NCBI GenBank assembly: GCA_964013895.1
Contig: CAXGYF010000002.1
Coordinates: 35,316 to 99,315 of the forward strand
Reading direction: 5' to 3'
DNA: 64,000 nt
Source of the DNA: an uncultured Acidimicrobiaceae bacterium
GTDB taxonomy: Bacteria > Actinomycetota > Acidimicrobiia > Acidimicrobiales > MedAcidi-G1
The translations under genes were made by a program, and so were the position numbers. Numbering within the stretch: position 1 is the stretch's first letter; the number at the start of each line of letters is the position of its first letter. Under the pieces are notes generated by a model. The model saw only the letters and a program-made list of their open reading frames with translations, had not been told where the DNA came from and searched no databases. Shown piece by piece: positions 17,604-32,424 of the stretch.

Positions 17604-17611
17604 AGTTCCCG

Positions 17612-18238
17612 TTAGGACCAAACTTTTGTCAATGATTCAACATCGGTCAATGTTGCTAAAACCGCAAGAGTGTTTTCAATAATAGTTTTTCCATATTCGA
17701 TCGGTACACCTGCTACAGCATCTATAGGGACTACAACTTGATAACCATTGTTTATTAGATCGAAAACACAATTTTGCACAGCAACGTTTAAGGAGACTCC
17801 ACTTACAATCACCGTAGAAATTTCTTCGTTTCTGAGCAAAGCGTCTAATTCGGTTCCCGATGTCGGTGAGAGACCATGAAATCTAGGAAGAAGGACATCT
17901 AGTTCGCTATCGAAACCTACTTCTTTTATCGGTTCTACTGTTTCAGTATCAGGCAACTGTTTTATAGGTGAGCGGCGAGCGGCTCCAAAAAGTCGAGCAT
18001 TATTATTTGACCCCCAACCATCTTCTCTTACCATTGCTAATCCATGAATTACTTTTATTTCTGAATTTCTTGCTGCTTGTGCGAGTTTTCCTAAGTTAGC
18101 AATAATGTTTTTAGAGGCTTCTGCAAGAGCTGGAAAACTAGACTTTTCGCCTATAACTCCATTTTGGCACTCCACCAAAAGTAAGGCAGTGTGATTAGGA
18201 TCTACTAAATCTTTAATTTCAAGATGTTCGCTACTCAT
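17612..18238 (-). CDS. Isochorismatase-fold protein with non-canonical active site
   Basis: TALLLVECQNG, VIVSGVSLNVAVQN and GYQVVVPIDAVAG. Confidence 0.82.
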   Translation of the reverse strand: MSSEHLEIKDLVDPNHTALLLVECQNGVIGEKSSFPALAEASKNIIANLGKLAQAARNSEIKVIHGLAMVREDGWGSNNNARLFGAARRSPIKQLPDTETVEPIKEVGFDSELDVLLPRFHGLSPTSGTELDALLRNEEISTVIVSGVSLNVAVQNCVFDLINNGYQVVVPIDAVAGVPIEYGKTIIENTLAVLATLTDVESLTKVWS

Positions 18239-20591
18239 ATTTGACTCCAGAATCTCTCAATAAGTCAATCCATCTTGTTCCCGCATCAGGAGCTAGTTCT
18301 CCAGGAACATAAGTAACCGAAATTAAACTTCCTTTGTAAGGAAATGGTCCGTGCCGCTCATACAAGGGCCATGAAACTGGCGATCTCCTGTCAATCCCAA
18401 CATCTATTCCTTCAAATGGAGCCATTGCAGTCAGCACAGGAAGATCAGGAGTCTCTGCAACTATGGATCCATCTACATATACCTGCGTATTCCATTTCAA
18501 ATCTCCCATCGCGTCGACTCTCAATTTTATTTCTTTAACACCGTCCGCAAGACTCCCGCAAGAAACCTCCGTCATAGTCCCATACCCGTTATGAACATGA
18601 TGAAGCTCACCGTTTTCTATGTACATGGAGTATCCACCTCCCTGATCCCCGTGAGCCACCAGTATCCCTTCGTCGCCTTTCTTATAATCGAGTGAAATTA
18701 TGATTTCAAAAGAACGAAAATTTATCAACTTGAGAGATCTGTATCTTTCTACTGTCGGCGTGCCAGGCAAGAAAGACTGAGTTTGTTCAAGTTCTTCCTC
18801 CCATTTCGGGCGGACGATATTTTTTAAACCTGTACCTTCATCAAGTGGAAACACCTGATTGGCCCAGGCTTCTTGTTCCCAAATATCTTTCAACTCAGCT
18901 AAAACTTCAGGGTGTGTATCCGACAGGTCGTTTGTTTCTGTCGGGTCGGTTGATAGGTCGAAAAGTTCCCATTTGTCTTCTGCGAATGAAGTTCGTTTCT
19001 GATGACAGGTTACTGCTGACCATCCTTCGCGATAAATACCCCTGTGCCCTTCTTGCTCGTAATACTGCAATGTGTGGGTGCTTTCAGCTTCTTCATTATT
19101 CATTGATTCAAGAAAGCTACTACCGTTAGGTGGTAACAACTTTTGACCTTTTCGTTCGTCTGGTATGTCAATTTCGAGCATTTCAAGAATCGTGGGCAGA
19201 AGATCAGTCACATGTTGATATTGCTTTCTGATTGATCCCGCGTCCTCCAAACCATCAGCTTTTGAAATTACTAAGGGAACTTGGTGGCCACCTTGATGTG
19301 TGTTTGTTTTATACAAGCGGAATGGAGTATTAGAAGCCATTGCCCATCCATTTGGATAATGAGCGAGTGCTTGTGGCCCCCCTAGTAGGTCCAACCTTGA
19401 ATTATCAGCTTCTACCGAATCAAGAGGATTCTCTCTAACTTGGCTGATCAGGGTTCTAAAATATGCCGAAGTTCCATTATCTAGGCCTTCCCTGCTCGCT
19501 CCATTATCCGAAGTGAAAACAACAACGGTGTTTTCCCATTCTCCCATAGCTTCTAATTCTTGTCGTAGCCTTCCAAAATTCTGGTCGACGTTGTCAACCA
19601 TTGCTGCATAAATCTCCTGATAACGGGCAAAAGTCTCTTTTTCCATTTCACTTAATTCATCCCATGGGCTTACTGCATAGTTCCTTTCTGTATTCCTTGG
19701 AGGTAGAACTGTTCCCTCGGGGATCAAACCAGATGAAATCTGGCGTTCGTAACGCTCTGCTCTGATTTTGTCCCATCCTCTGTTATACATTCCTTCATAT
19801 TTCTTTATGTCTTTTTCAGGAGCTTGAAGAGGGGCGTGTACAGCTCCATGGGAGAAATACATAAACCACGGTTTTTTTGGATGCCCTGTCCTCACTTCCT
19901 TTATCATGTCCAGGGCATGATCTGTTAGGTCATTAGTAAAAAAGTAGTTTTCTGGATACGAGTCAACCTGCACTACATGATTGTCTTCATATAAGCGATG
20001 CGGTTGATGAAAGTTTGTAAAACCATCAAGTATCCCGTAATAACGATCAAAGCCGCGTTGACAAGGCCAAGAATTTTTTGGGCCAGCTTCTGAAAGAGTG
20101 TTATCTGGCGTTAAATGCCACTTGCCAACCATAAGGGTTGCCCATCCATTGTCTGAAAGAATCTCAGCCAAAGTTGCAGTATCGCTTCGAATGGATGCTG
20201 CATAGCCAGGAAAACCAGGATCTGCGTGGCAGACCGTAGCTAATCCAGCTAAATGAGAATTTAAACCAGTAAGTAATGAAGCACGTGTTGGGGAACACAT
20301 TGGATTCACATGAAAATTTGTATATCGAATACCTTCGGCTGCTAGAGCATCCAAATTAGGTGTTTCAATCTCAGAACCATAAGAACCTAGATCTGAAAAA
20401 CCAAGGTCATCACATAGAACTATAAGAATGTTTGGTGCGTCTTCGTGAGGCTCATTTCTTTTTGGCCAAGCTGGTGAGGAAGTCGCGTGTAAGCGTCCGA
20501 TTTCTCCTTCGAATCCCGAGTACGCTTTATTCAAATTTTTTTCTTTGTCATTTCTGCCGGTTATTTTTTTGAACATGTCAGTTGCTTTCAT
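18231..20591 (-). CDS. Arylsulfatase (long mycobacterial AtsA/B/D type)
   Basis: DDLGF, formylglycine motif CSPTRASLLTG, GKWH, SDNG and a C-terminal LamG-like extension. Confidence 0.93.
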   Translation of the reverse strand: MKATDMFKKITGRNDKEKNLNKAYSGFEGEIGRLHATSSPAWPKRNEPHEDAPNILIVLCDDLGFSDLGSYGSEIETPNLDALAAEGIRYTNFHVNPMCSPTRASLLTGLNSHLAGLATVCHADPGFPGYAASIRSDTATLAEILSDNGWATLMVGKWHLTPDNTLSEAGPKNSWPCQRGFDRYYGILDGFTNFHQPHRLYEDNHVVQVDSYPENYFFTNDLTDHALDMIKEVRTGHPKKPWFMYFSHGAVHAPLQAPEKDIKKYEGMYNRGWDKIRAERYERQISSGLIPEGTVLPPRNTERNYAVSPWDELSEMEKETFARYQEIYAAMVDNVDQNFGRLRQELEAMGEWENTVVVFTSDNGASREGLDNGTSAYFRTLISQVRENPLDSVEADNSRLDLLGGPQALAHYPNGWAMASNTPFRLYKTNTHQGGHQVPLVISKADGLEDAGSIRKQYQHVTDLLPTILEMLEIDIPDERKGQKLLPPNGSSFLESMNNEEAESTHTLQYYEQEGHRGIYREGWSAVTCHQKRTSFAEDKWELFDLSTDPTETNDLSDTHPEVLAELKDIWEQEAWANQVFPLDEGTGLKNIVRPKWEEELEQTQSFLPGTPTVERYRSLKLINFRSFEIIISLDYKKGDEGILVAHGDQGGGYSMYIENGELHHVHNGYGTMTEVSCGSLADGVKEIKLRVDAMGDLKWNTQVYVDGSIVAETPDLPVLTAMAPFEGIDVGIDRRSPVSWPLYERHGPFPYKGSLISVTYVPGELAPDAGTRWIDLLRDSGVKYE

Positions 20592-21804
20592 CTGTTCTTA
20601 TACGCAAAGCGTAAGCCAAAAGAATCATCATTAGACAAACTGCGATCATCAGCCACAAGACTCCGTCGTACCCAAAAGCTGAATCAGCCATTCTTCCTGC
20701 TGATACTGGCCCTAGGACGCCGCCAATTTCCGCGCTAGCAAACCAAAGACCGTAAGCTGTTCCCATTTGTTTTACATTCAATTTAGGTGATTCCATCAGG
20801 GCGAGAATTACTAGAGGTATTAATGCTGATCTAGAACCGGCAATCATTACTGATATCGGAGTCGTATAGCTCGGCAGAAACATAATTGCGAGCAAAGAGA
20901 TAACAATTACTAAAAGGATGCAAATGAGAATAGAAGAAAAGTTTTCTCTTCGTGTCCGCGAAGGGATTAATAGTGATACAAGAATTCCTATTCCCAAACT
21001 TGCTGCTGTCCAGTTTGATGCCGCCATTGAAGAAAACCCAATATGTTCTCTAAGGATTTCAGGCATCCACCCCCCCAGACCATGAGATAAAAAGAATACG
21101 GTGACCCCTAGAAGAAATATGACTTTAATTTCTTTTGAAACGACTATAGATTTCCAAATTAGGATCGTTTTGCTTCCATTTTTTTTCCCAACATGATCTT
21201 TTTGAATTTTAAATTCAGCTATAAATATCCAAAAAATCAAGGCAAAAGCGATTACGAATGTTTCAATTGCAATTGTCCAACGCCAGGAGTTTGTTAAAGG
21301 CATCAAAAGTGAATTGGACATGACGAGGACTAAAATGCTCCCGACTGCCGGGGCAGCTGTGTAAGCACCAACCGCAAACTTTCTTTCCCTTTCATTCGTG
21401 AACCAAAAACCAACTGCAGTCGGAGCGCAAGCAGATACTAAAGGACCTCCAATACCAAAAAGAGCAACTGCTATACATAAAGTTGTCAGATCATTAGCAA
21501 AAGAACGTGTGATCCCGCTTATAAAAACCAGAGAAGCTCCAATTGTCATTGAATACCCAACGCCTAAACGATCTATTACCCGTCCCGCTATTGGAGATGT
21601 GACTATATAGACCAATTGCCATGTCCCTAATGCAATTCCTATTTCCCCACGAGTCAGATTCAAATCTGACCGTATTTCTCCTACAAGAGGGGCTAGCGAC
21701 ATAGCCACCATGCCGAATCCAAGGTACACAAAGAAAACACCAGAAAAAATAACCCATCTGTATGAATCGTTGTGTACAGGTTCTTGAAGAAATTTCTTAC
21801 GCAC
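20578..21804 (-). CDS. MFS transporter (CynX/NimT-like)
   Basis: About 12 TMs; motif A GRVIDRLG; start moved from 21843 to GTG 21804. Confidence 0.85.
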   Translation of the reverse strand: MRKKFLQEPVHNDSYRWVIFSGVFFVYLGFGMVAMSLAPLVGEIRSDLNLTRGEIGIALGTWQLVYIVTSPIAGRVIDRLGVGYSMTIGASLVFISGITRSFANDLTTLCIAVALFGIGGPLVSACAPTAVGFWFTNERERKFAVGAYTAAPAVGSILVLVMSNSLLMPLTNSWRWTIAIETFVIAFALIFWIFIAEFKIQKDHVGKKNGSKTILIWKSIVVSKEIKVIFLLGVTVFFLSHGLGGWMPEILREHIGFSSMAASNWTAASLGIGILVSLLIPSRTRRENFSSILICILLVIVISLLAIMFLPSYTTPISVMIAGSRSALIPLVILALMESPKLNVKQMGTAYGLWFASAEIGGVLGPVSAGRMADSAFGYDGVLWLMIAVCLMMILLAYALRIRTDESN

Positions 21805-21854
21805 GTCAAATAATCTCACAACAATGAAGAAATGATCGTGCATTAGAACAAAAC

Positions 21855-22730
21855 TTGCGCGATCCTGTTCTAGTGAATGAATTAATCTTAGATTATGACT
21901 CTTTAGATTCTTTGAACAGACCAGTCCTTATTGTGGCTTTTAAAGGGCTTTTTGATGCCAGTGGTTCAGCCACCTCTGCTCTTGAATGGCTAATCGAAAA
22001 GTCAGAGTCTGAGAATATTGGAGAAATTGACTCTGAAACTTTTTTTGACTTCACTCAAGAAAGACCTCTAATCAGTTTCGATAAAAATGGGGAAAGAGCT
22101 CTTACATGGCCTACAAATAAAATAGTAGCAATGAAAACCAAAGAAAATGAAAGAGACCTTCTTGCTATTTCTGGAGTTGAACCACACCTTCGCTGGCGCA
22201 CATTTAGCGAACTTTTAATAGAACTAGTTAACAAATCAAATGCTGAATCTGTTCTTACACTCGGGTCAATGGTCGGAATGACGCCACACAGTCGACCTTT
22301 GACGGTCACAGGGAGCAGTACTAATCCAGAGCTTGCAGAACGCTTGCATCTGGAAAAACCTTCTTATCAAGGGCCAACTGGAATAGTTGGCGTGCTTCAC
22401 GATGCACTCGACCGTTCAAAGATTCCAGTTATATCACTTCGAGTTTCAGTTCCTCACTATGTTCCAGATGCACCTAATCCAAAAGCGACAAGAGCTCTTC
22501 TTAGACGCTTTGAACAAGTAACTGGAGTTACGACAGAGTATGAAGAACTTGATGGACCCGCTGCTGATTGGCAAAAACAAGTAGATTCTGCCGTGGCCAG
22601 TGACGATGAAATAACTGCCTATGTAACCCGCTTAGAAACAGCTATTGATGAAGATGAAAACCTTTTACCTTCAGGAGATGATCTGGCCGCTGAATTTGAA
22701 GCTTTCCTTCGTGAACAAGACCCAGATTAA
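21855..22730 (+). CDS. PAC2 family (proteasome assembly chaperone-like) protein
   Basis: AFKGLFDA, FFDFTQERP, GVEPHLRWR, YQGPTGIVG, VPHY and acidic C-terminus AEFEAFLR. Confidence 0.9.
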   Translation: MRDPVLVNELILDYDSLDSLNRPVLIVAFKGLFDASGSATSALEWLIEKSESENIGEIDSETFFDFTQERPLISFDKNGERALTWPTNKIVAMKTKENERDLLAISGVEPHLRWRTFSELLIELVNKSNAESVLTLGSMVGMTPHSRPLTVTGSSTNPELAERLHLEKPSYQGPTGIVGVLHDALDRSKIPVISLRVSVPHYVPDAPNPKATRALLRRFEQVTGVTTEYEELDGPAADWQKQVDSAVASDDEITAYVTRLETAIDEDENLLPSGDDLAAEFEAFLREQDPD

Positions 22731-22748
22731 GATCGATACAGGAGAAAT

Positions 22749-23450
22749 ATGAATCAGAATAATACCATGGACCTCAAAGAGCTTCTAGCAGTAGCCGAAC
22801 AAGCTGGCCGGTCATTAATAGATTCTGCTGAAAAAGATCTTGACGCAACTGTCCCTACTTGTCCGGAATGGAACAACTTAGAGCTTCTTAACCATATGAA
22901 AATGGTGTGGTGGTTCGCGGCTTCGCAAATCAATGCCGGAAACGAAACTGAAAGAACTGCTCCATCTGGTGAAATGAAAAACTCGCCCTTAGAGCAACTT
23001 GAAACTTTATTAAAAGCATGTCAGGTCAATGATTTTTCGTCTCCTTGCTGGTCGTGGACGACTAATAAAACTGTTGGTTTTTGGGTTAGACGCATGGCTC
23101 ATGAAAACACGGTTCACAATTGGGATTCAGAAGGAACTTTAGACTCACGTTCTTCAATTTCGACGTTATTAGCTCTTGATGGAATCGAAGAGAAACTCTT
23201 TCTGTATCCTGCAGATACCGAATTTCCTACTGCTTCAATTCACTTGCATTGCACTGACTGTGAAGGTGAATGGATGCTGGCTCTATCAAGTGGTGAACTT
23301 GAAATAAAAAGAGAACACGGTAAAGGCGATGCAGCTGTAAAAGGCAGAGCGGAAGATATCCTTCTTTACCTTTGGGGTCGAGGGCAGGAAAATCTTGAAT
23401 GCTTCGGAGATGAAGAGGTGATTAATACTTGGGCACGCATTGGCCCTTAA
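22749..23450 (+). CDS. MDMPI/DinB-superfamily (mycothiol-dependent maleylpyruvate isomerase-like) protein
   Basis: VPTCPEW...LLNH, FWVRRMAHENTVHNWD, DGIEE and an SCP2-like C-terminus. Confidence 0.85.
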   Translation: MNQNNTMDLKELLAVAEQAGRSLIDSAEKDLDATVPTCPEWNNLELLNHMKMVWWFAASQINAGNETERTAPSGEMKNSPLEQLETLLKACQVNDFSSPCWSWTTNKTVGFWVRRMAHENTVHNWDSEGTLDSRSSISTLLALDGIEEKLFLYPADTEFPTASIHLHCTDCEGEWMLALSSGELEIKREHGKGDAAVKGRAEDILLYLWGRGQENLECFGDEEVINTWARIGP

Positions 23451-24644
23451 TCAGGAAAGTTCCGCTCCTACAATGCCTACGAAAGAGACCATCTCACCTG
23501 GATAACCACCCAAGTTATGTACAAGTGCTTGCTGGGATTGTTCAAGAGAAATTGACCTATCAGCTGGCGCCTCTCCTCTTAGTTGCAACCATGTCTCATA
23601 GAACATTCTTAGTCCACTGGCACCCACTGGGTGACCGAAGGCTTTAAGTCCTCCATCAGTATTTACAGGAATTTCCCCATCTATATCGAAAGACCCATCA
23701 AGCACTTCCTGCCATGCTTTACCTTTTTCACAAAAACCCAAGTCTTCCATAAGAATCATCTCTGTTGGGGTGAAACAGTCATGAACTTCCGCCATGGCTA
23801 GTTCTTTTCTCGGTTCCGTAATCCCAGCTTGCATATAGGCGTCTTCAGCTGCAACGGCGCATTCGGGAAGAGTGGTGAAATCGAAATCTGGATCCACTAA
23901 ACCGCTGCTATCTCCAGCAACTACAGAAAGCGCCTTTATATATAAAGGTTTATCAGTATATTTATGAGCATCTTCGGCTCTAACTACTATGGCAGCCGCT
24001 GCCCCATCAGCAACGCCGGCACAATCCATAACTGAGAGGCGTCCAGCAATCGATGGCATTTCACAGATCTTCTCAGCCGAAATCTCACGTCGAAATTGAG
24101 CTAGTTCATTTCTTGACCCATTGAAATGGTTTTTTTGAGCTATGCGAGCCACGACGTATCTGAGCTCGTCTTCATCAACTCCGTATCGCTTCGCATACGC
24201 AGGGATAATCAGACTAAACATGGCTGCTGCTGTCAATGTCCGATTTGTGCCATCAGTCGGAACAGGAAAAGCATTGAGACCTTGGTAACCGCTATCTTTT
24301 ACTTTTTCTGCTCCTAGCGCCATTGCAGAGTCATACGCACCAGAAGCTACTGCGTAACAAGCTTGACGCAGAGACTCAGACCCGGTGGCACAATAATTTT
24401 CTACACGGGTAACAGGTTTGCCTGAAAGTCTCAAAGGTGTAGCTAAAGCTATTCCTGATGCCGCGGACTGCGAAGTTCCGAACCAATAAGCATCTATCAG
24501 GTCAGTCTCAAGACCCGCTGATTTTGTAGCTTTTTCCGATGCCTCGATAATGAGATCGTCAAGTGATTTGTCCCAATGTTCACCAAAATTCGTACAACCC
24601 ATTCCTACAATTGCGACTTGATCTTTAATGCCATGTGACGCCAT
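23451..24644 (-). CDS. SCP2-type/archaeal-type thiolase (PhlC-like)
   Basis: VENYCATGS (Cys), EVHDCFT, GHPVGASG and HNLGG. Confidence 0.9.
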   Translation of the reverse strand: MASHGIKDQVAIVGMGCTNFGEHWDKSLDDLIIEASEKATKSAGLETDLIDAYWFGTSQSAASGIALATPLRLSGKPVTRVENYCATGSESLRQACYAVASGAYDSAMALGAEKVKDSGYQGLNAFPVPTDGTNRTLTAAAMFSLIIPAYAKRYGVDEDELRYVVARIAQKNHFNGSRNELAQFRREISAEKICEMPSIAGRLSVMDCAGVADGAAAAIVVRAEDAHKYTDKPLYIKALSVVAGDSSGLVDPDFDFTTLPECAVAAEDAYMQAGITEPRKELAMAEVHDCFTPTEMILMEDLGFCEKGKAWQEVLDGSFDIDGEIPVNTDGGLKAFGHPVGASGLRMFYETWLQLRGEAPADRSISLEQSQQALVHNLGGYPGEMVSFVGIVGAELS

Positions 24645-26060
24645 TTAAGACTTCCCTCTTTCTCGCCTTATCGGTCTTGCTTTCCAAAAGTAGTTGTGGA
24701 TTCCATCAGCTGTATACAAACAACGAAACGTCATTTCTACCCGATCACCGATTTCAATTTTCTCTGGGTCTGCGTCTGCAAGTTCGACGGGAAGTCGCCC
24801 CCCATCTTCGAAATTAACTACAGCGAAAACTACAGGAGAGTTTGGAGAGTAAACCAAATTATCAACTGTGAAAGTCTCGATCGTTCCTATCGAATCAGCC
24901 ATAGGTAACTGTTCCATGTCATCAATACCGCCGCCTTTTATACCGATGCGAGATGGTGGCATGTGGACTATTCCTGTCGTTGCATCTTTGGATGCAACAA
25001 AACCCATTTTCCAATCATTTCGTCTCATAGCAGCTGATGAGGAAGGCCTAGTCGGAGAAGGGCGATTAGGGAGTTGACTGTCTAACAATCCACGCCATGA
25101 AAGATACTTACCATAGGGAACTGGTGACTGATTTTCTATTTGCTCAGAAACAGGAAAAGAATTTCTCCGATTTTCAATTTCTTGGGTGGTTCGAAAGAAA
25201 AGAATGTCGCAACCATCAGCTAGAACTATTAATGCAACTACCTCATCTGGTTTTGCTTGATCAAGAAAATTAGCCAGAAGAAGTGACGGCTGGGCGGCAC
25301 CTGCATTCCCAATCTTTCCAGTCAAATCATCAGCTACTTCCACATTAAGTAAAGGAGTTGATTTAGCTACAGCACGAGAATGAAGCCCTGATATAAGTGC
25401 AAAGTTTATATCTTCAGTTTTCATGCCGACTTTCTTTAAGGCTTCATTCCAGGCTCTGTCAACCAGTGGCTTATATGCTTGTTCCCCAAACCGCTCTTCC
25501 CATACTTGAGAATAAGAACTTCCTGGCACGCGCCACCTATCAGTAAAATCAGAAGTTATTGAAACTCCACCTAGGTACTCTGCGAGTAAAGCCCCTTGTT
25601 CGTCTGTTCCGATTAATAGAGCTGTAGCAGCATCTCCACCGGAAGATTCTTCAGTTCCGCCTGATGGCCCTGTTCTTAAATCCGCAGCAACTACCAAAGT
25701 CGAGAGATCACTTTCTAAAGCATTGGATAAAGCACCTACTGCCGACCGGGTTGAATTCCCGAAGTCGACTACTTCTACAAAATCATCCAACTGAAGGGCT
25801 GAGTGTATATTTGTTGCGTTTGTTTTATCCATGTATGCAGGAACAACAGTTGAGAAGGACAGCTTTTTCGGATTCATGTCTGATCCTTTTAAAGCACTTC
25901 GGGCAGCCTCAACTCCCATGGTGGTGGTATTTTCATCATAAGATGCAACGGATCTAGAGCCCTTATTTGACCCTTTACCTGTGAATTCAACTATTGATGA
26001 ACGCAGCAGGCAACCTCTGGGTATGTAGGCGCCATATGAAATAATTCCATGGACTCCCAT
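24645..26060 (-). CDS. HMG-CoA-synthase-like domain fused to a DUF35 OB-fold
   Basis: GIISYGAYIP, DENTTTMGVEAA and GGDAATA, then a C-terminal OB-fold GTIETFTVD...IGDRVEMTFR...NYFWKARP. Confidence 0.85.
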   Translation of the reverse strand: MGVHGIISYGAYIPRGCLLRSSIVEFTGKGSNKGSRSVASYDENTTTMGVEAARSALKGSDMNPKKLSFSTVVPAYMDKTNATNIHSALQLDDFVEVVDFGNSTRSAVGALSNALESDLSTLVVAADLRTGPSGGTEESSGGDAATALLIGTDEQGALLAEYLGGVSITSDFTDRWRVPGSSYSQVWEERFGEQAYKPLVDRAWNEALKKVGMKTEDINFALISGLHSRAVAKSTPLLNVEVADDLTGKIGNAGAAQPSLLLANFLDQAKPDEVVALIVLADGCDILFFRTTQEIENRRNSFPVSEQIENQSPVPYGKYLSWRGLLDSQLPNRPSPTRPSSSAAMRRNDWKMGFVASKDATTGIVHMPPSRIGIKGGGIDDMEQLPMADSIGTIETFTVDNLVYSPNSPVVFAVVNFEDGGRLPVELADADPEKIEIGDRVEMTFRCLYTADGIHNYFWKARPIRRERGKS

Positions 26061-26176
26061 TATTAAGCCCCCAATTGCCTATTATCTGAATTAGTAAGAA
26101 TCAACTTAATCCAATCCAATGAACCTTAAGGAAGTATCCTAGGCTTAAATCTTTATTCTCCCGACACAAGGAGTTC

Positions 26177-27430
26177 TTGATGGATTTAGGAGATATATCA
26201 AATGAAGACGCCGTCAAGTACGGAAAACCACTTGATGGTGTGAAAATACTTGCGGCCGAGCAGATGCAGGCCCTACCATTTGCTACTCAATTACTAGCCC
26301 GCTTGGGCGCTGAAGTAGTGAAAATTGAGCACCCAATCAAAGGTGAGTCTGCACGTGGTTCTGTACCTTTCATGAACGATCCATATGGGAATCCTGTAGG
26401 AGCTACTTTCCTTCGAAATAACTTAAATAAAAAAAGTGTTGGAATTGATCTCTCGACATCAGAAGGTCAGGATCTTTTTCTTCGTTTAGTTCCAAATTTT
26501 GATGTAATCGGCGACAATTTTAAACCAGGAACCATGAAAAAATTTGGACTTGATTACAAATCAATCAACTCTAAGTATCCAAATGTGATAGTTATATCTA
26601 TTTCAGGTTTTGGGAACTCCGGAGACTCGCCTTATCAGAACTGGCCAGCTTACAATTCAGTGGCCGAAGCAATGTCAGGCCTTTACGATTTCAAGCGCCG
26701 TGACGGAGAACCCCCCATAGTTAATCCGATGGGTGCAGTAGGTGATATTGCAACGAGTTTATTCGGTGTTATCGGGATACTTGCTGCTCTTAGACATAGA
26801 GAAGATACAGGTAAAGGTCAATACATTGATATAGCCATGTTTGATTGCATGGCGTCTTTAGCTGATGTTGCTATAAATTTTCATTCAATGGGAATCCCAC
26901 GAGAGCCAAACCCAGCACCTTATGTCATTGCTCCCTTTCGCTGTAGTGACGGCTATTTAGTTCTTCAATTTGTTCGGGAGCATCAGTTCGAGAACCTCGC
27001 AAATCTGATCGACAAAACTGACTGGATCGGAGACCCGCGTTTTCAAGAGAGGTCAGGATGGGGAGAACATTTACATTCAGACATTATTCCTGCATTAGAA
27101 GAATGGTCTAAAAACCGAACTAGATCTGAGACTTCAAGTTTGCTCGCTGAGGCAAACGTGGCATCGGGGCCTGTTTTAACTACCTCAGAAGTGGTTGAGG
27201 ACCCACACTTAGAAGAAAGAAATATGATCGTGTCATTGCCTAGGACCGATGAGATAAGCGACCCTGTTCTTCTACCCGGAAATCCTATAAAAATGTCAAA
27301 AGTAGCTGAAGGGCCCGAAATCAGAGTTCCATGGGTTGGAGAGCATACAAATCAGGTTCTTACCGAAGAACTAGATCTCAGCGTTACAGAACTAGAAGAT
27401 CTTAGAAAAATGGGCGTTATTAGCCAATAA
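26177..27430 (+). CDS. Family III CoA-transferase (CaiB/BaiF)
   Basis: PLDGVKIL, GAEVVKIE, NLNKKSVGIDL, NFKPG, catalytic VGD and GEHT. Confidence 0.93.
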   Translation: MMDLGDISNEDAVKYGKPLDGVKILAAEQMQALPFATQLLARLGAEVVKIEHPIKGESARGSVPFMNDPYGNPVGATFLRNNLNKKSVGIDLSTSEGQDLFLRLVPNFDVIGDNFKPGTMKKFGLDYKSINSKYPNVIVISISGFGNSGDSPYQNWPAYNSVAEAMSGLYDFKRRDGEPPIVNPMGAVGDIATSLFGVIGILAALRHREDTGKGQYIDIAMFDCMASLADVAINFHSMGIPREPNPAPYVIAPFRCSDGYLVLQFVREHQFENLANLIDKTDWIGDPRFQERSGWGEHLHSDIIPALEEWSKNRTRSETSSLLAEANVASGPVLTTSEVVEDPHLEERNMIVSLPRTDEISDPVLLPGNPIKMSKVAEGPEIRVPWVGEHTNQVLTEELDLSVTELEDLRKMGVISQ

Positions 27431-27432
27431 AT

Positions 27433-28716
27433 TCATTCCTCAATATATTTATCTAGAAGCTGAGCGACTGTCATCTCTACCGGAATTTTTTCAACTCCGA
27501 TTACGCGATCAATCACTTCTTGCATGTTGTATATTCTTCGCTCCTGATAACACAAAGGCGTTCCGTCATAGGTTGGGGACTCCATCGCTTTCTGCATTGC
27601 ATCAAGATTCCAAACGTCTTCATCTATTACTCCAGCAAATTCAGATATCCGTTGTTTCCATGCTTCGGGCGGGTCACCATCTCCCCAATCTGGAGCGTAG
27701 TGATATATACGAATCTTAGTTTTATCAATACCTGCGGGGAAAAATAGCATGACAGGAAAGCCTGTAGCCGCTAGGGGCGTAATGAAATTTGGAAAGATCG
27801 TAAATGAATAACTAGTGCAATGGACAATAGGATGAACGGTTGAAATGTTTTCAAGCCCTAACGGGTCTTTCACTGTCTTAAAATCTTTCCATGATTCCAT
27901 TCCAAGCTTCTCTACCATTTGTTTTGAACGTGGAACTACCATTCTGGAATTACCGTGTTTTAAAAGACCCATCGTTCCACCGCGCGAGTCAAGACTTGTC
28001 CATCCCCCACGATCATGTATGAAGCGAAAATGGTAGACCTCTTGAAATGCTTCGATTGCAACTTTCCAGTTGCAATTGACTTCACGGTGATCTGTGCCCA
28101 CTAAACGAAGATTCTCACATTGATACTGTTTCATTTCTTCAGGGATTTTTCCTAAGAAATCAATCAGAGGAGATGCGTTTGGATTCACGTTGATCCAGAT
28201 CCATCCCCCCCATGTGTCACAACTTATTTCTGGTAATCCTCGGTCTTCCTTACATAGGTCAACGAAATCCCTTTCGTCTGGTACAGCTAAAAGTTCGCCG
28301 TTATCTATTCCGTATGTCCACGAATGGTACTGACACTGTAAACGACGTATGGTGCCTTTTTTCTCTCTTACAACCGGTGCTCCGCGATGTCTGCAGGTAT
28401 TTGAAAAACATCGAATTTTATTATCGTTCCCTCTTACTACTATTAATGGGATTCCGGTCTCTTCAAATAGAAAGTAGTTTCCTGGATCGGGTATGTCTTC
28501 AACTCGACCCGCTGCAAGCCAACTGTTATTCCATAAATATTTTTGTTCTAGCTCATAAAAATCTTCGTCCGTATAACGCGCCGAAGGGATATCAGGAAAC
28601 TGAGGGAAATTTTCTGGTGGGGCTTTTCTGTCTAATTCATACTCCATGTCTGCAACTAGTCGATCAACTAATTTTTGATCAAGTAAAAATTCACTCATAA
28701 TTTTCCCCTTAAGCAA
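27433..28716 (-). CDS. Rieske non-heme iron oxygenase alpha subunit
   Basis: NTCRHRG...CQYHSW Rieske cluster; EAFQEVYHFRFIH and ED iron ligands. Confidence 0.93.
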   Translation of the reverse strand: MLKGKIMSEFLLDQKLVDRLVADMEYELDRKAPPENFPQFPDIPSARYTDEDFYELEQKYLWNNSWLAAGRVEDIPDPGNYFLFEETGIPLIVVRGNDNKIRCFSNTCRHRGAPVVREKKGTIRRLQCQYHSWTYGIDNGELLAVPDERDFVDLCKEDRGLPEISCDTWGGWIWINVNPNASPLIDFLGKIPEEMKQYQCENLRLVGTDHREVNCNWKVAIEAFQEVYHFRFIHDRGGWTSLDSRGGTMGLLKHGNSRMVVPRSKQMVEKLGMESWKDFKTVKDPLGLENISTVHPIVHCTSYSFTIFPNFITPLAATGFPVMLFFPAGIDKTKIRIYHYAPDWGDGDPPEAWKQRISEFAGVIDEDVWNLDAMQKAMESPTYDGTPLCYQERRIYNMQEVIDRVIGVEKIPVEMTVAQLLDKYIEE

Positions 28717-29427: not shown

Positions 29428-30249
29428 CTAAATTGTATAGGCAAGATTCTCTGCGATTCGTCTTGCTACTTCCAGATCACCGCCTAGGAGCACTCGCCCA
29501 TCTTCTATATATCTTGTTGAATCGTCACGTCCTCCTGTTAAGGCAGTGAAATCCAATGACGACATTGTCAGGGTACTAGTCGGATCTTCGTCAAAAGATT
29601 CTACTAATGAGGCCCTCCCATCACTTACTTCGACTCTTAGGGTTCTCTCGACAGGTCCTGAAATGATAATTTGGATACGGCTACCTTCTGGGGCTCCACC
29701 TTTTTTACCCACTATGTATCCAGCAGCGGAAGAGACTTCGTCAATTGCTATTTCAGCCGGCAAACCATCTTCGTCTCCGGGAAGACCTAGAGGTTCTCTG
29801 CAATCCTGCATGTGCAACCATGCGTCATAAACTCTAATTTGCATAAACCTTCCGTATGGCGCTTCGCCGGCTGGTGTCCATCCAACAGCTTGAAACTCTT
29901 CGTCACTCATTTCTGATAGGACATTAAATCTTTCAGCTGTTACTTCGTTAAACAAAGCAAGTATTTCACTACCTTCCTTTTCACGAAAACTATGTATCGC
30001 TTTTTCGTTTGCTTCGCCTACAGGATTTTTTACATGATCGGCCGACACCTCTACTTCTGGTAGTTTCTGACCACTTAACATGTATTCGCCCCCGACAAGA
30101 TGAGATAGGTTGTCTTTGACAGTCCAACCAGGAAGACGGCTATAAGTTTGCCATTGGCTTTCGTTCAATTGTGAGCCAAACTGACTCCATTTTCCCCAAA
30201 TTTGATTGAGTCCTTCAACAATCTGGGTTTTGTTTATACTCATTTTCAC
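29428..30249 (-). CDS. MDMPI/DinB-superfamily protein with SCP2-like C-terminus
   Basis: PGWTVKDNLSHL, IRVYDAWLHMQD. Confidence 0.85.
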   Translation of the reverse strand: MKMSINKTQIVEGLNQIWGKWSQFGSQLNESQWQTYSRLPGWTVKDNLSHLVGGEYMLSGQKLPEVEVSADHVKNPVGEANEKAIHSFREKEGSEILALFNEVTAERFNVLSEMSDEEFQAVGWTPAGEAPYGRFMQIRVYDAWLHMQDCREPLGLPGDEDGLPAEIAIDEVSSAAGYIVGKKGGAPEGSRIQIIISGPVERTLRVEVSDGRASLVESFDEDPTSTLTMSSLDFTALTGGRDDSTRYIEDGRVLLGGDLEVARRIAENLAYTI

Positions 30250-30255
30250 TCCTAT

Positions 30256-30942
30256 TTAAGGTGTAGGGTTCGCTCTTGTCTCCCAATCTCTTGCTTTGAC
30301 GTAAGGATTGAATGCGTCGCTGATCATTTCAAGATCGGAGGGCATTTTGGGTCTTTGCATCTCGTACAAATTAGGAAATTCCAGCCACCCGGTTATTAAA
30401 TGCCATAATTTATCAGCCTTCTCACCTGTAGGTGGATTAATTAAAACCGGTCCGAAAATCCTTTCATTTTGACTAAAAACAAGTGTTGGAACCCCGAAAC
30501 CTCCCAAGGAAACAACAAGTTCGTGATCTTTTTTCACATCATCGTGTGTTGTTGGGTCGGCAAGTGCTTCTTCAACGATCTGAGGGTCTTGATCCATTTC
30601 TTTCAAAAGTAAGCGAGCTACATCGGGATCATGGGGCTTGCGTCCTTCAATGTGGAGAGCTGTTCCTGATTTTAGATACCAAGCGTCATTTAGGGCTGGG
30701 TCAATTCTTTTGAGAAAAGCTCCTATTCTCATCATTGACCACCCATAAGACCATTCACGCTCCCATGGGTGTTTTTTACCTTCTTCGTGATTAATTTCTT
30801 CAAGACTAAAAAAACACCAGTCAACTTCTATGTTTAACCTGTCTCTAACTTCGCGCATCCAGATCGATGTTTGATACGCCCAAGGGCACATGACGTCAAA
30901 GTGAAATGCCACATGGCTCGGACTGTTTTCATTTTCCATCAA
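30256..30942 (-). CDS. DsbA-fold thioredoxin-like protein (Rv2466c mycothiol-dependent reductase-like)
   Basis: FHFDVMCPWAY single Cys, GVPT, IFGPV and LYEMQRP. Confidence 0.78.
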   Translation of the reverse strand: MMENENSPSHVAFHFDVMCPWAYQTSIWMREVRDRLNIEVDWCFFSLEEINHEEGKKHPWEREWSYGWSMMRIGAFLKRIDPALNDAWYLKSGTALHIEGRKPHDPDVARLLLKEMDQDPQIVEEALADPTTHDDVKKDHELVVSLGGFGVPTLVFSQNERIFGPVLINPPTGEKADKLWHLITGWLEFPNLYEMQRPKMPSDLEMISDAFNPYVKARDWETRANPTP

Positions 30943-32424
30943 TTACTCCTTTTCTTGCAATTTATGACGTAAAACCTTACCAAGTGCGTTCCTAGGTAAT
31001 TCTTTCACAATTACCAATCTTTTAGGAATTTTGTAGGGGGCTAAATATTGTGAAGCATGTTTTCTGACTTCGGCGATATTAATACTGTTAATTCCTTTTT
31101 CCATCACAATCCAAGCTACGACTTCCTCTCCCCACTCTTGTGATTTGACTCCTGATACTGCCGCTTCAGCAATTTCTGGGTGTGCTTGCATGACTTCGTC
31201 AACTTCTTGTGGGTAAACATTTAGTCCACCAGTAATTATTAGCTCTTTTATACGACCGTTAATCGTCACATAGTTATCGTCAGATACCTCTGCTATGTCT
31301 CCTGTTTTAAACCACCCTGAGTTAAAAGAATCATTAGTTTCTTTCTGTTTAGACCAATACCCTTTGAATACAGATTCACCACGGACTAATACTTCCTTGC
31401 TTTCTTCCTCTATTTGAATCTCTACACCTGGCAAAGGAAATCCAACTGAGCCAGCACGTCGTTCACCTATATAAGGGTTGGAAATCGTAAGCATCGTCTC
31501 GGTGGTTCCGTAACGTTCCAGTACATCAACTCCTCCTTTGTCTTTTAATTGTTGATGTAAATCTGCTGGTAGAGGTGCAGAGCCAGAAACACATAAACGC
31601 AATGAGGCTAGCTGACTGATTCTTTCATCTTCAACAAGTCTTTGATACATGGTTGGGACTCCAAAAAACATCGAACAATTATTCTCAGCTATTTCAGAAA
31701 ATACCAAATCTTTGTCGAAACCTTCCTGCAGAACAGCTGAGCCTCCGACTAGCAATGTTCCGTGTAAACCTATACCCATTCCATGAATATGGAATAAAGG
31801 TAGACATAGCAAAAGACGGTCTGACTCTGTCCACTCCCATGCTCTAGCGACTGAAAGGGCTCCAGCTAATAACGATCTCTGGGTGTGGGTAGCTCCTTTG
31901 GGTTTGCCAGTAGTTCCTGATGTGTATGCGATCAAGGCCGGGTCTTCTGGTTTAGCAAGATCCAAATCTGGATTGGGTCCGCTTCTTGTTTCAACTGCTG
32001 TGGAAGAGACAAATAATTCAGAATCGATTGAATTTAGAAGTTTGTGCCATTCCTCTTGATCTACTAAGGCTGCTCGTGGTTTCGAATCTTCAATTAGAAA
32101 TGCTAATTCTGTTTCCGTGTATGAGATATTTACAGGCACAACAACAAGACCGAGTCTTAAACATGCGACGTGAGAAATGACTAAATCTAGCGAATTTTCT
32201 CCAGCGATTAGAACACGATCTCCGGGGAGTAGCCCAGAATTAGCTAGGTTAGATGCTGTTTTGGAAGTCAGATCTAGAAAACTTCCTCGATCTATTTCAC
32301 GACCATTGAAAGAAAAAAGTTTTCTTTCGGGTTCTATTTCTAAAGTTTTTACCCAAGACCCCACAAGGGTTTCTTCGTCTGGTATCCGTAATTTATGCCC
32401 TGATATTACAAGTTGAGTTCCCAT
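30943..32424 (-). CDS. Acyl-CoA synthetase (AMP-binding, MatB-like)
   Basis: YTSGTTGKPKG, ERYGTTE, FKTGD and PRNALGKV. Confidence 0.92.
   Translation of the reverse strand: MGTQLVISGHKLRIPDEETLVGSWVKTLEIEPERKLFSFNGREIDRGSFLDLTSKTASNLANSGLLPGDRVLIAGENSLDLVISHVACLRLGLVVVPVNISYTETELAFLIEDSKPRAALVDQEEWHKLLNSIDSELFVSSTAVETRSGPNPDLDLAKPEDPALIAYTSGTTGKPKGATHTQRSLLAGALSVARAWEWTESDRLLLCLPLFHIHGMGIGLHGTLLVGGSAVLQEGFDKDLVFSEIAENNCSMFFGVPTMYQRLVEDERISQLASLRLCVSGSAPLPADLHQQLKDKGGVDVLERYGTTETMLTISNPYIGERRAGSVGFPLPGVEIQIEEESKEVLVRGESVFKGYWSKQKETNDSFNSGWFKTGDIAEVSDDNYVTINGRIKELIITGGLNVYPQEVDEVMQAHPEIAEAAVSGVKSQEWGEEVVAWIVMEKGINSINIAEVRKHASQYLAPYKIPKRLVIVKELPRNALGKVLRHKLQEKE

Follow-up and report, generated by a model that had tools for sequence, protein, structure and literature searches.

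A DUF35-fused, degenerate HMGS-like scaffold and its SCP2-type thiolase in a marine Acidimicrobiales genome: a probable degradative CoA-dependent complex

The locus and its gene pair

The window analysed in this work is a stretch of 64,000 nucleotides (contig CAXGYF010000002.1, assembly GCA_964013895.1) from an uncultured marine member of the Acidimicrobiales, a planktonic bacterium with a streamlined genome of 1.7 Mb. It contains a gene for a scaffold protein, P0001, in which an HMGS-like domain is joined to a DUF35 part, and a gene for a thiolase, P0002 (Table 1). The initial annotation had described two abutting genes here, and both minus-strand ORFs were found exactly in that arrangement: in the window sequence the TAA stop codon of P0001 directly abuts the ATG of P0002 with zero spacer, and a Shine-Dalgarno-like site for P0002, GAGGGAAG, is located within the 3' end of the P0001 gene. 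The same order, with the thiolase gene immediately downstream of the scaffold gene, was present in 79 of 80 genome loci. According to the number of P0001 homologues (more than 6,500 in the homologue search) and the match of P0002 to a curated family (see below), both ORFs can be taken as real genes. The fused form was detected in 68 of the 162 high-quality Acidimicrobiia genomes searched, and the purifying selection acting on it is strong in the present locus, which comes from a streamlined and abundant marine actinobacterium. The region between the pair and the divergent CoA-transferase gene presumably holds promoter and regulatory signals; no consensus promoter above chance was found in these 116 bp.

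Table 1. Genes, domains and residues of the scaffold-thiolase locus, in window coordinates
Feature	Position	Strand	Remarks
Scaffold gene (P0001), pseudo-HMGS domain, linker and DUF35, 471 aa	24645..26060	(-)	stop codon 24645-24647
HMGS/PhlA-like thiolase-fold domain, aa 1-326 of P0001	25083..26060	(-)	catalytic tetrad degenerate
V72, in place of HMGS Glu	25845-25847	(-)	profile and family alignment
T104, in place of HMGS Cys	25749-25751	(-)	profile and family alignment
R105, family-specific invariant	25746-25748	(-)	family alignment
S224, in place of HMGS His	25389-25391	(-)	profile and family alignment
H227, family-specific invariant	25380-25382	(-)	family alignment
R229, family-specific invariant	25374-25376	(-)	family alignment
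N252, retained tetrad Asn	25305-25307	(-)	profile and family alignment
Pro/Ser/Arg-rich linker, aa 327-353	25002..25082	(-)	low pLDDT, many invariant residues
DUF35 part, aa 354-471	24648..25001	(-)	Cys-less zinc-ribbon remnant, then OB-fold
SCP2-type thiolase gene (P0002), 397 aa	23451..24644	(-)	NCBIfam NF004810
Cys85 of P0002, catalytic	24390-24392	(-)	alignment of orthologues
HDCF 288-291 of P0002, catalytic	23772-23783	(-)	alignment of orthologues
GHP 337-339 of P0002, catalytic	23628-23636	(-)	alignment of orthologues
Intergenic region, 116 bp, between divergent scaffold-thiolase operon and CoA-transferase gene	26061..26176	(.)	
Family-III (CaiB/BaiF) CoA-transferase	26177..27430	(+)	divergent from scaffold-thiolase pair
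Rieske alpha subunit	27433-28716		within 8 kb of pair
AMP-ligase (acyl-CoA ligase)	30943-32424		within 8 kb of pair

Residues lost and retained in the two proteins

Pfam detects only the DUF35 OB-fold in P0001 (PF01796, residues 391-446), and the HMGS-like domain stays below the threshold of NCBIfam NF003274 (141.7 bits, cut-off 244). Its relatives are nevertheless evident from the sequence matches of P0001 in the PDB, which are archaeal HMGS (6ESQ_I), PhlA (5M3K_A) and MucA (9VBO_A), and from the top Foldseek matches of its AF2 model (6ESQ, 9SKH, 5M3K and 9VBO), so the fusion of an HMGS-like domain to a DUF35 OB-fold proposed in the initial annotation is borne out. In the profile alignment, Glu82, Cys114 and His238 of 6ESQ_I align with Val72, Thr104 and Ser224 of P0001 and Asn270 is kept as Asn252, so that three of the four tetrad residues are lost. 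Moreover, T104 occupies the position of the nucleophile elbow in the AF2 model, where it opens helix 104-116 following strand 96-100. Across 206 homologues Glu and Cys never occupy the former catalytic columns, 71 of these proteins contain no cysteine at all, and the loss of HMGS residues is also seen in distant fusions from Rhodococcus, Mycobacterium, Streptomyces and proteobacteria. The loss of the Cys and the Glu had been read initially from FGNSTRSAVGAL (residues 100-111) and FSTVVPAY (residues 69-76); both stretches are present in P0001, and the profile and family alignments agree with that reading and add the loss of the catalytic His. Judging from these alignments, the HMGS domain is catalytically dead throughout the family, and with Glu, Cys and His all gone P0001 would not carry out Claisen chemistry. 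The former HMGS pocket contains three invariant residues, R105, H227 and R229, suggesting that this domain could have a role beyond that of a passive scaffold.

The linker that follows has its counterpart in the N-terminal arm of DUF35 proteins that stand alone, and many of the linker residues are invariant (P331, R333, P334, P336, R338, S340, A343, R346, W350 and K351). A contact between the linker and the thiolase is predicted; the role of the PhlB tail has been described previously (PMC6392133). In the DUF35 part, the positions of the zinc-ribbon ligands are now D359, T362, G373 and G376. Every zinc-ribbon cysteine has thus disappeared, a feature that the initial annotation did not include, and there is no Cys between residues 285 and 446 of P0001.

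P0002, by contrast with the dead HMGS domain, is an intact SCP2-type thiolase. C85, H288-D289-C290-F291 and G337-H338-P339 are invariant in the 20 aligned orthologues (P0002 and 19 others), and the Cys-His-His set first recognised in NYCA (residues 83-86), VHD (287-289) and GHP (337-339) is accompanied by a second catalytic cysteine, Cys290 of the HDCF motif. P0002 also passes the curated NCBIfam equivalog NF004810 (PRK06157, 'acetyl-CoA acetyltransferase') with 566.2 bits (cut-off 403), and partner thiolases encoded beside distant fusions, in Novosphingobium, M. avium and Rhodococcus loci, pass it too (575-657 bits). Its best PDB match is the thiolase of the archaeal complex (6ESQ_A, 1e-57), ahead of BbsB, PhlC and Ltp2. 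[quoted passage not shown]

Predicted complex, conserved neighbours and probable function

For the association of the two proteins that the initial annotation had envisaged, the complex prediction scored 0.63 while the best of three controls scored 0.00. Among 80 solved complexes 58 attained this mark, as did 2 of 110 mismatched pairs; these counts are only a rough guide to the score because our own alignments were used. At least 76% of the contacts agreed between runs, partner pLDDT was at least 90, and the predicted interface on the P0001 side comprises residues 332-458. As similar complexes have already been solved (6ESQ, 5M3K and 9VBO), the prediction speaks for likeness only and may be a recall of these homologous structures. 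A heteromeric complex of P0001 and P0002 is plausible.

The initial annotation had listed a CoA-transferase, a Rieske oxygenase and an acyl-CoA ligase as neighbours of the pair, and only the first of them proved to be a conserved partner. The divergent family-III CoA-transferase is linked to the pair in 43 of 80 related loci, is the sole neighbour whose linkage is conserved beyond the genus, and is closer to true transferases (formyl-CoA transferase, SUGCT) than to AMACR. The Rieske gene is near the pair in just 3 of the 80 loci, all from genus-level relatives with at least 81% identity, and the ligase gene in 9, the two being neighbours of the pair in genus-level relatives only; a relative with 61% identity has an acyl-CoA dehydrogenase (ACAD) and a second CoA-transferase where the Rieske gene would be. 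Furthermore, about 33-37 of the 80 loci carry a CoAT-ACAD-CoAT-MaoC-MaoC-ACAD block, which in larger Acidimicrobiia genomes provides a second CoA-transferase, ChsE-like acyl-CoA dehydrogenases and a ChsH-like hydratase pair (the best matches are ChsE4/5 and Tcur3481/3483 for the ACADs and ChsH1/H2 for the MaoC protein). This ACAD/hydratase block is absent from the host genome itself, so that the pathway there is guessed from one neighbour only. The strong purifying selection on the fused form, its pairing with a CoA-transferase and the frequent presence of ChsE/ChsH-like genes argue for a working catabolic enzyme, and the conserved neighbours offer a concrete set of genes leading towards the substrate of the fused complex.

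We consider it probable that P0001 and P0002 together make up a CoA-dependent thiolase, a heteromeric complex of the bacterial ACAT/HMGS-DUF35 type, and a degradative thiolase is most likely, rather than a Friedel-Crafts acylase in the style of PhlABC. Cys85 of P0002 would be the acyl-accepting nucleophile, the HDCF loop would provide His288 and Cys290 as acid/base residues and the GHP motif would contribute His338. The linker and the DUF35 OB-fold of P0001 would clamp P0002, and the pseudo-HMGS domain would maintain its solubility and correct shape and, by analogy with the archaeal, Phl and Muc complexes, probably help to form a common CoA/acyl-binding chamber. We infer that a 3-oxoacyl-CoA is split thiolytically into two acyl-CoA molecules. 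In the streamlined genome the substrate would most likely be supplied by the divergent CoA-transferase activating a 3-oxo acid or a dicarboxylate, the transferase and the thiolase complex working as a module of two steps like PcaIJ/PcaF or SCOT/thiolase. In the bigger Acidimicrobiia genomes the pair would end a β-oxidation-like route involving the second CoA-transferase, two ChsE-like ACADs and the ChsH-like MaoC pair, a machinery that would fit bulky or branched acyl-CoAs.

As a more tentative extension of this proposal, which we regard as possible and no better than that, the pseudo-HMGS domain might not be just a relic of evolution: the ex-HMGS pocket with its near-invariant Arg105, His227 and Arg229 might have been repurposed for the recognition of anionic or bulky acyl-CoAs, such as a dicarboxylyl-CoA or a branched 3-oxoacyl-CoA, and the zinc-free fused complex might serve as the dedicated last enzyme in a catabolic pathway that has not been described and is started by the CoA-transferase. 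Such a pathway would exist in about half of the sampled Acidimicrobiia genera, would use the ChsE-like ACAD pair and the ChsH-like hydratase in larger genomes, and would have been cut down to the CoA-transferase and the thiolase complex in planktonic MedAcidi-G1.

No dedicated 3-hydroxyacyl-CoA dehydrogenase was found in the conserved Acidimicrobiia cluster, and as this enzyme is needed upstream of thiolysis there is room for non-thiolytic chemistry. P0002 could then be a retro-aldol lyase like Ltp2 or Sal, cleaving the 3-hydroxyacyl-CoA delivered by the ChsH-like hydratase without a dehydrogenase, as happens in the final round of steroid side-chain breakdown; the ChsE-like ACADs and ChsH-like MaoC pair of the relatives would suit this reaction. 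Ltp2-type aldolases are in general not known to have the nucleophilic Cys. The host genome contains an Ltp2-type YDHF paralogue with Gly at the position of Cys85, encoded elsewhere (contig C4) beside a MaoC/DUF35 protein, and the thiolase and Ltp2 types are thus distinguishable in this organism. DUF35-bound thiolase-fold aldolases are indeed known, but Ltp2 has YDHF and Sal has YDCY (PMC12329534), whereas HDCF and Cys85 are invariant in P0002. With the hydratase/ACAD block also missing from the host genome, we find a retro-aldol function unlikely.

The initial annotation favoured a PhlAB-fusion/PhlC system. On this reading Cys85 would be acylated and an aromatic or enolic small molecule would accept the acyl group on a nucleophilic carbon, with the HMGS and DUF35 parts as scaffold. 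The architecture stands, as the subunit set is that of PhlABC, the degenerate motifs of P0001 are closer to PhlA than to active HMGS, PhlA homologues score as high as archaeal HMGS with the P0001 family profile, and the PhlA entries 9SKH and 5M3K rank beside 6ESQ in Foldseek. However, the Friedel-Crafts function is quite improbable. [quoted passage not shown] Neither a type III PKS nor any other PKS/NRPS was detected by Pfam scans of the 19 neighbouring ORFs (14.7-35.6 kb), only 29 of 1,030 such loci have been tied to secondary metabolism (Liao et al., PMC12960953), and the host has a small planktonic genome.

The ibuprofen genes ipfABDEF have been proposed to remove the side chain from a ring-dihydroxylated aryl-alkanoyl-CoA. 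The pair could do the same together with the Rieske and ligase encoded nearby, and homologous pairs on M. avium and Variovorax plasmids do share their operons with genes for both Rieske subunits, alpha and beta, and for enoyl-CoA hydratases, the M. avium operon also including a ligase. We give this option equally little weight. Between the pair and the window's Rieske and ligase genes lie the CoA-transferase gene, on the opposite strand, and unrelated redox-repair genes (MsrA, DinB/MDMPI, Rv2466c-like), and the Rieske linkage is confined to genus-level relatives. The window Rieske is just ~26-27% identical to the plasmid Rieskes, in its N-terminal half, has GbcA type as its best NCBIfam match, and has no beta subunit gene beside it. 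Finally, a biosynthetic complex forming acetoacetyl-CoA or HMG-CoA, as in archaeal mevalonate entry, is close to refuted, although among solved structures the archaeal subunits are the closest homologues of P0001 and P0002, as the tetrad is broken family-wide, mutation of the tetrad abolishes HMG-CoA formation by archaeal HMGS and the fused complex of P. fluorescens yields neither compound (PMC12960953), and HMG-CoA reductase (PF00368) was not found in the host genome, which at 92% completeness leaves its absence unproven.

Comparison with known systems

The archaeal complex (6ESQ) gives the best sequence and fold matches of both proteins, and its thiolase has the same kind of Cys, HDCF and GHx motifs. 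In contrast, its HMGS is active (E82/C114/H238/N270), its DUF35 protein is separate and binds zinc, and it serves the mevalonate pathway. PhlABC of Pseudomonas protegens (5M3K/5MG5) and MucABC of Streptococcus macacae (9VBO) share with our pair an inactive HMGS-like scaffold without Glu and Cys, a bridging DUF35 component and a catalytic thiolase-fold subunit with a Cys nucleophile, and the degenerate motifs of P0001 resemble those of PhlA (GNSTRSA and GKSGTSA, GNAGAAQP and GDAGSASP, respectively). However, scaffold and DUF35 are encoded by separate genes in both systems, which lie in PKS or NRPS-PKS clusters. The acceptor and proton-relay residues of PhlC are His56, Tyr124, His347, Glu116, Asp137-Thr132-His144 and Trp211, P0002 and PhlC having been compared by overall score only.

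BbsAB (7PXP) also combines a DUF35 subunit with an SCP2-type thiolase containing HDxF. It closes a β-oxidation route begun by family-III CoA-transferases (BbsEF) and an ACAD (BbsG), a layout that resembles the conserved Acidimicrobiia cluster. Unlike our pair, BbsAB has no HMGS-like domain; P0002 reaches 124 bits on NF053628 (cut-off 750), and BbsB is a weaker PDB match to it than the archaeal thiolase. In ChsH1-ChsH2(DUF35)-Ltp2 and Shy-Sal a fused DUF35 domain likewise recruits a thiolase-fold enzyme, and ChsE-like ACADs and a ChsH-like hydratase occur in the clusters of P0001/P0002 relatives as in steroid side-chain systems. DUF35 is joined to a MaoC hydratase in ChsH2/Shy systems and to a pseudo-HMGS in P0001; Ltp2 and Sal are aldolases, and P0002 has the full thiolase set.

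By architecture, motifs and gene context, the pair matches the bacterial ACAT/HMGS-DUF35 class, a fused dead HMGS-DUF35 with a thiolase, published in January 2026 (Liao et al., Nat Commun, PMC12960953). These authors see the fused class as an intermediate of evolution that belongs to no pathway, and 1,001 of the 1,030 bacterial HMGS/ACAT/DUF35 loci in their study (~97%) have no known one. The P. fluorescens complex has the same fusion, no tetrad and a thiolase with Cys/HDxF/GHx; it cleaves acetoacetyl-CoA in vitro, makes no acetoacetyl-CoA or HMG-CoA, and loses the cleavage activity with the H294Y change (PMC12960953). This proteobacterial complex is the sole assayed relative; the assays used acetoacetyl-CoA only, and its substrate in nature may be a different one. 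Like it, our system consists of two genes with no PKS/NRPS neighbours, and its thiolase belongs to NF004810 as those of proteobacterial and actinobacterial fusions do. P0001 is, however, only about 30-33% identical to the proteobacterial fusions, keeps the tetrad Asn and has H227 and R229 as clade-specific invariants. The Acidimicrobiia clade further differs from the P. fluorescens complex in having lost all the DUF35 zinc-ribbon cysteines and in its link to a family-III CoA-transferase, which in larger genomes is extended by ChsE/ChsH-like genes.

The gene pair and its scaffold with a dead HMGS domain

The scaffold P0001, an HMGS-like domain joined by a linker to DUF35, and the SCP2-type thiolase P0002 are encoded by two abutting minus-strand ORFs that fill positions 23451-26060 exactly, and all the motifs quoted for them in the initial annotation were found at the places it had assigned. 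The TAA stop codon of P0001 is directly followed by the ATG of P0002, and a ribosome-binding-like site for the latter (GAGGGAAG) lies within the 3' end of the P0001 gene, which is how an operon with translational coupling is laid out. When positions 23000-27600 were scanned for promoters and terminators, the number of sites did not exceed that in shuffled sequence, and the divergent intergenic region had none. Seven marine metatranscriptome libraries contain only 5-12% of the sampled words, and from four of these libraries a dozen contigs, 151-283 nt long, fell on all three genes, one contig, at ∼96% identity, crossing the scaffold/thiolase junction (24592-24855); because these RNA libraries may contain DNA, the contigs do not establish transcription or co-transcription. 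The genome is of 1.73 Mb and 92% complete, and the named genomes closest to it are Acidimicrobiales MAGs of marine MedAcidi-G1, which encode a protein of 90% identity. A single scaffold-thiolase polypeptide was considered when some Acidimicrobiia matches fell in open frames of at least 900 aa, and was ruled out at the three loci inspected, where the thiolase has its own ORF of ∼397 aa and the frames owe their length to upstream extension in high-GC DNA.

Features of the locus and of a related gene pair elsewhere in the genome (window positions unless stated)
Feature	Position	Strand	Remarks
P0002, thiolase gene	23451-24644	minus	397 aa
P0001, scaffold gene	24645-26060	minus	471 aa
Zinc-ribbon remnant	24920-25001		P0001 aa 354-380
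R105, H227, R229 codons	25374-25382 and 25746-25748		former HMGS pocket of P0001
Family-III CoA-transferase gene	26177-27430		divergent from the pair
Rieske oxygenase alpha subunit	27433-28716	minus
ORF wholly inside the Rieske gene	28212-28700	plus	162 aa, opposite strand; probably not a gene
Block downstream of the thiolase	16353-23450
Two MDMPI/DinB-type proteins and Rv2466c-like reductase homologue	22749-23450, 29428-30249, 30256-30942		within 8 kb
MaoC + DUF35 open frame (505 aa), then YDHF thiolase-fold protein without nucleophile Cys	contig C4, 63227-65920		outside the window

In P0001, Pfam recognizes only the C-terminal DUF35 OB-fold (PF01796, aa 391-446). Against NF003274, the model for archaeal-type HMG-CoA synthase, the N-terminal 326 residues score 141.7 bits, short of the 244-bit cut-off, and their PDB matches are the HMGS chain 6ESQ_I from the archaeal thiolase/HMGS/DUF35 complex, PhlA (5M3K_A and 9SKH_A) and MucA (9VBO_A). 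The same four structures headed a Foldseek search with the AF2 model of P0001 (mean pLDDT 72, pTM 0.77). The HMGS catalytic tetrad is E-C-H-N (PMC12960953), and we mapped it by aligning a profile of 20 family members to 6ESQ_I. E82, C114 and H238 of the archaeal enzyme correspond to V72, T104 and S224 of P0001, and only the asparagine (N270, here N252) is kept. According to the AF2 model, T104 occupies the nucleophile-elbow position, at the start of helix 104-116 and after strand 96-100. In an alignment of 206 sequences no protein has Glu in the column of E82 or Cys in that of C114, 71 of these proteins having no cysteine whatever, and the tetrad is also lost in distant fusions from Rhodococcus, M. 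avium, Streptomyces, Novosphingobium, Variovorax and Azoarcus. As the alignment and the distant fusions agree on the loss, the catalytic residues are not retained at shifted positions, the outcome that the initial annotation had named as refuting a dead HMGS domain; the architecture that it described, a thiolase with a dead HMGS fused to DUF35, was confirmed.

Two features are particular to the Acidimicrobiia-type proteins. The DUF35 zinc ribbon (CxxC...CxxC), three cysteines of which (Cys31, Cys44 and Cys47) are conserved across DUF35 homologues (PMC12329534), is present in the Rhodococcus, Mycobacterium, Streptomyces, Novosphingobium and Azoarcus fusions, and is retained in actinomycetes and most proteobacterial fusions; all four cysteines are replaced by D359, T362, G373 and G376 in ∼200 of the 206 sequences. 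Moreover, the former HMGS pocket contains the near-invariant residues R105 (205/206), H227 (191/206) and R229 (201/206). The linker (aa 327-353) is predicted to be disordered yet is rich in invariant residues.

The thiolase and the predicted complex

P0002 passes the curated NCBIfam equivalog NF004810/PRK06157 (566 vs 403 bits), and among solved structures it is closest to the archaeal-complex thiolase (6ESQ_A; 1e-57, 199 bits), followed by BbsB (118 bits), PhlC (97-103 bits) and Ltp2 (6OK1, 80 bits). An alignment of 20 orthologues shows no variation at C85 (NYCATG), H288-D-C290-F or G337-H338-P, HDCF being the SCP2-thiolase signature, while the aldolases Ltp2 and Sal have YDHF and YDCY, respectively (PMC12329534). 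A paralogue on contig C4 of the same genome has YDHF, lacks the nucleophile Cys and adjoins a MaoC/DUF35 protein, so that thiolase and aldolase types coexist in this genome and can be told apart; the C4 pair resembles the hydratase-aldolase pairs of Ltp2/ChsH type, here in a planktonic marine actinobacterium. The genome has seven DUF35 domains, on C4, C8, C10, C29 and the contig of the window (C2), each beside a thiolase-fold gene. Among these seven, only the window thiolase and that of C10 have the full Cys/HDCF/GHP set, and the rest are degenerate.

The predicted P0001/P0002 complex scored 0.63, and the best of three controls 0.00. Of 80 solved complexes 58 attained this score, as did 2 of 110 mismatched pairs; because our own alignments were used for the prediction, these counts apply only approximately. 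The runs share at least 76% of contacts, with partner pLDDT of at least 90, and the predicted interface places P0001 residues 332-458, that is, the conserved linker and DUF35, against thiolase residues 118-149, 198-201 and 245-256. Because homologous complexes have been solved (6ESQ, 5M3K, 9VBO), this result measures likeness to them and is no proof of binding. The nearly obligate pairing of the genes lends independent support, the thiolase being directly downstream in 79 of 80 related genome loci.

Gene neighbourhood and distribution

Beyond the divergent CoA-transferase gene lie those for the Rieske alpha subunit, MsrA, a DinB/MDMPI protein, an Rv2466c-like protein and an AMP-ligase. The initial annotation had placed the pair next to a CoA-transferase, a Rieske oxygenase and an acyl-CoA ligase. 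Across the 80 loci the first association holds, an orthologous CoA-transferase being present in 43, and the other two do not (AMP-ligase in 9; Rieske in 3, all from relatives of at least 81% identity). A second CoA-transferase was found in 37 loci, a MaoC-N/MaoC-C pair in 32-33 and two ACAD types in ∼33-37 each. A 61%-identical relative has an ACAD and the second CoA-transferase in place of the Rieske gene, with downstream synteny retained. For the ACADs of the relatives, the best matches are ChsE4/E5 (4X28) and Tcur3481/3483 (6WY8), heterotetrameric enzymes that act on steroid side chains, and the relatives' MaoC protein matches only ChsH1/ChsH2. Neither an orthologue of this ACAD/hydratase block nor HMG-CoA reductase was found in the 92% complete genome of the window. 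The window CoA-transferase is closer to formyl-CoA transferase, SUGCT and YfdE than to alpha-methylacyl-CoA racemase (150-186 vs ∼85 bits), and an AMACR-like racemase is thus unlikely.

The window Rieske protein has no adjoining beta subunit or reductase, and its best NCBIfam match, the GbcA type, is below threshold (134 vs 670 bits). The genome encodes at least six Rieske alpha paralogues. On two plasmids the pair lies beside alpha and beta Rieske dioxygenase subunits; orthology of the window protein to these M. avium and Variovorax genes was ruled out (∼26-27% identity, over the N-terminal half). The M. avium plasmid pP7a and Variovorax sp. SRS16 plasmid 3 carry the pair in operons with several enoyl-CoA hydratases, the former also with an AMP-ligase, a layout reminiscent of the ibuprofen ipf genes. 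On plasmid pDK3 of Rhodococcus sp. DK180, an HMG-CoA-lyase-family gene lies between two ACADs beside the pair, in a cluster with a CaiB/BaiF CoA-transferase and a MaoC pair.

Downstream of the thiolase are genes for MDMPI, PAC2, an MFS transporter, a 786-aa sulfatase, an isochorismatase-like hydrolase and a SulP permease, a block syntenic in relatives (loci L009 and L010) whose scaffold protein is only 58-61% identical. The two MDMPI/DinB-type proteins and the homologue of the mycothiol-dependent reductase Rv2466c hint that this lineage of Acidimicrobiales uses redox chemistry of the mycothiol type. The fusion occurs in 68 of 162 high-quality Acidimicrobiia genomes (50 of the 103 genera searched), with a near all-or-none distribution by family. 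In other phyla the pair is found among enoyl-CoA hydratases, SDRs, 3-hydroxyacyl-CoA dehydrogenases, ACADs and CoA ligases or transferases. Taken across loci, the gene context points to catabolism of unusual acyl-CoAs, and nothing in it indicates biosynthesis.

Proposed mechanism and comparison with known complexes

Beyond the observed architecture, residue status, family membership and synteny of the pair, we infer its binding, reaction direction, substrate and coupling to the CoA-transferase as follows. P0002 would be the catalyst: a 3-oxoacyl-CoA would be attacked by Cys85 at its 3-oxo carbon and cleaved between C2 and C3, with His338 and the HDCF loop (His288, Cys290) handling protons, and CoA would then release the acyl-enzyme. 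P0001 would contribute no HMGS-type catalytic residue, its DUF35 and linker holding the thiolase and its pseudo-HMGS domain completing the oligomer and probably also a shared CoA/acyl chamber. The adjacent CoA-transferase could plausibly supply the 3-oxoacyl-CoA or an upstream acyl-CoA.

A similar class has been described from a set of 1,030 mined bacterial loci in which genes for HMGS, ACAT and DUF35 lie together, 1,001 of these loci being without secondary-metabolism neighbours (Liao et al. 2026; PMC12960953), the only paper in which a full-text search found the term 'HMGS-DUF35'. Its one characterized representative, from P. fluorescens, pairs a fused HMGS-DUF35, devoid of the E-C-H-N tetrad, with an ACAT in which Cys, HDxF and GHx are present; this complex forms neither acetoacetyl-CoA nor HMG-CoA from acetyl-CoA, and cleaves acetoacetyl-CoA thiolytically, an activity abolished by the HDxF mutation H294Y (PMC12960953). 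PhlC and MucB, in contrast, have lost HDxF and perform Friedel-Crafts C-acetylation (PMC12960953). The PhlABC-type Friedel-Crafts chemistry put forward in the initial annotation is therefore not upheld for P0001/P0002, as P0002 keeps HDCF and the pair lacks the defining Phl/Muc feature. The interest of the locus rests mainly on the unexplained conservation of the dead pocket and on its conserved, uncharacterized pathway context. The pair fits every sequence-testable feature of the ACAT/HMGS-DUF35 class, and the locus adds a new member, actinobacterial and devoid of the zinc ribbon, to this complex type published in 2026.
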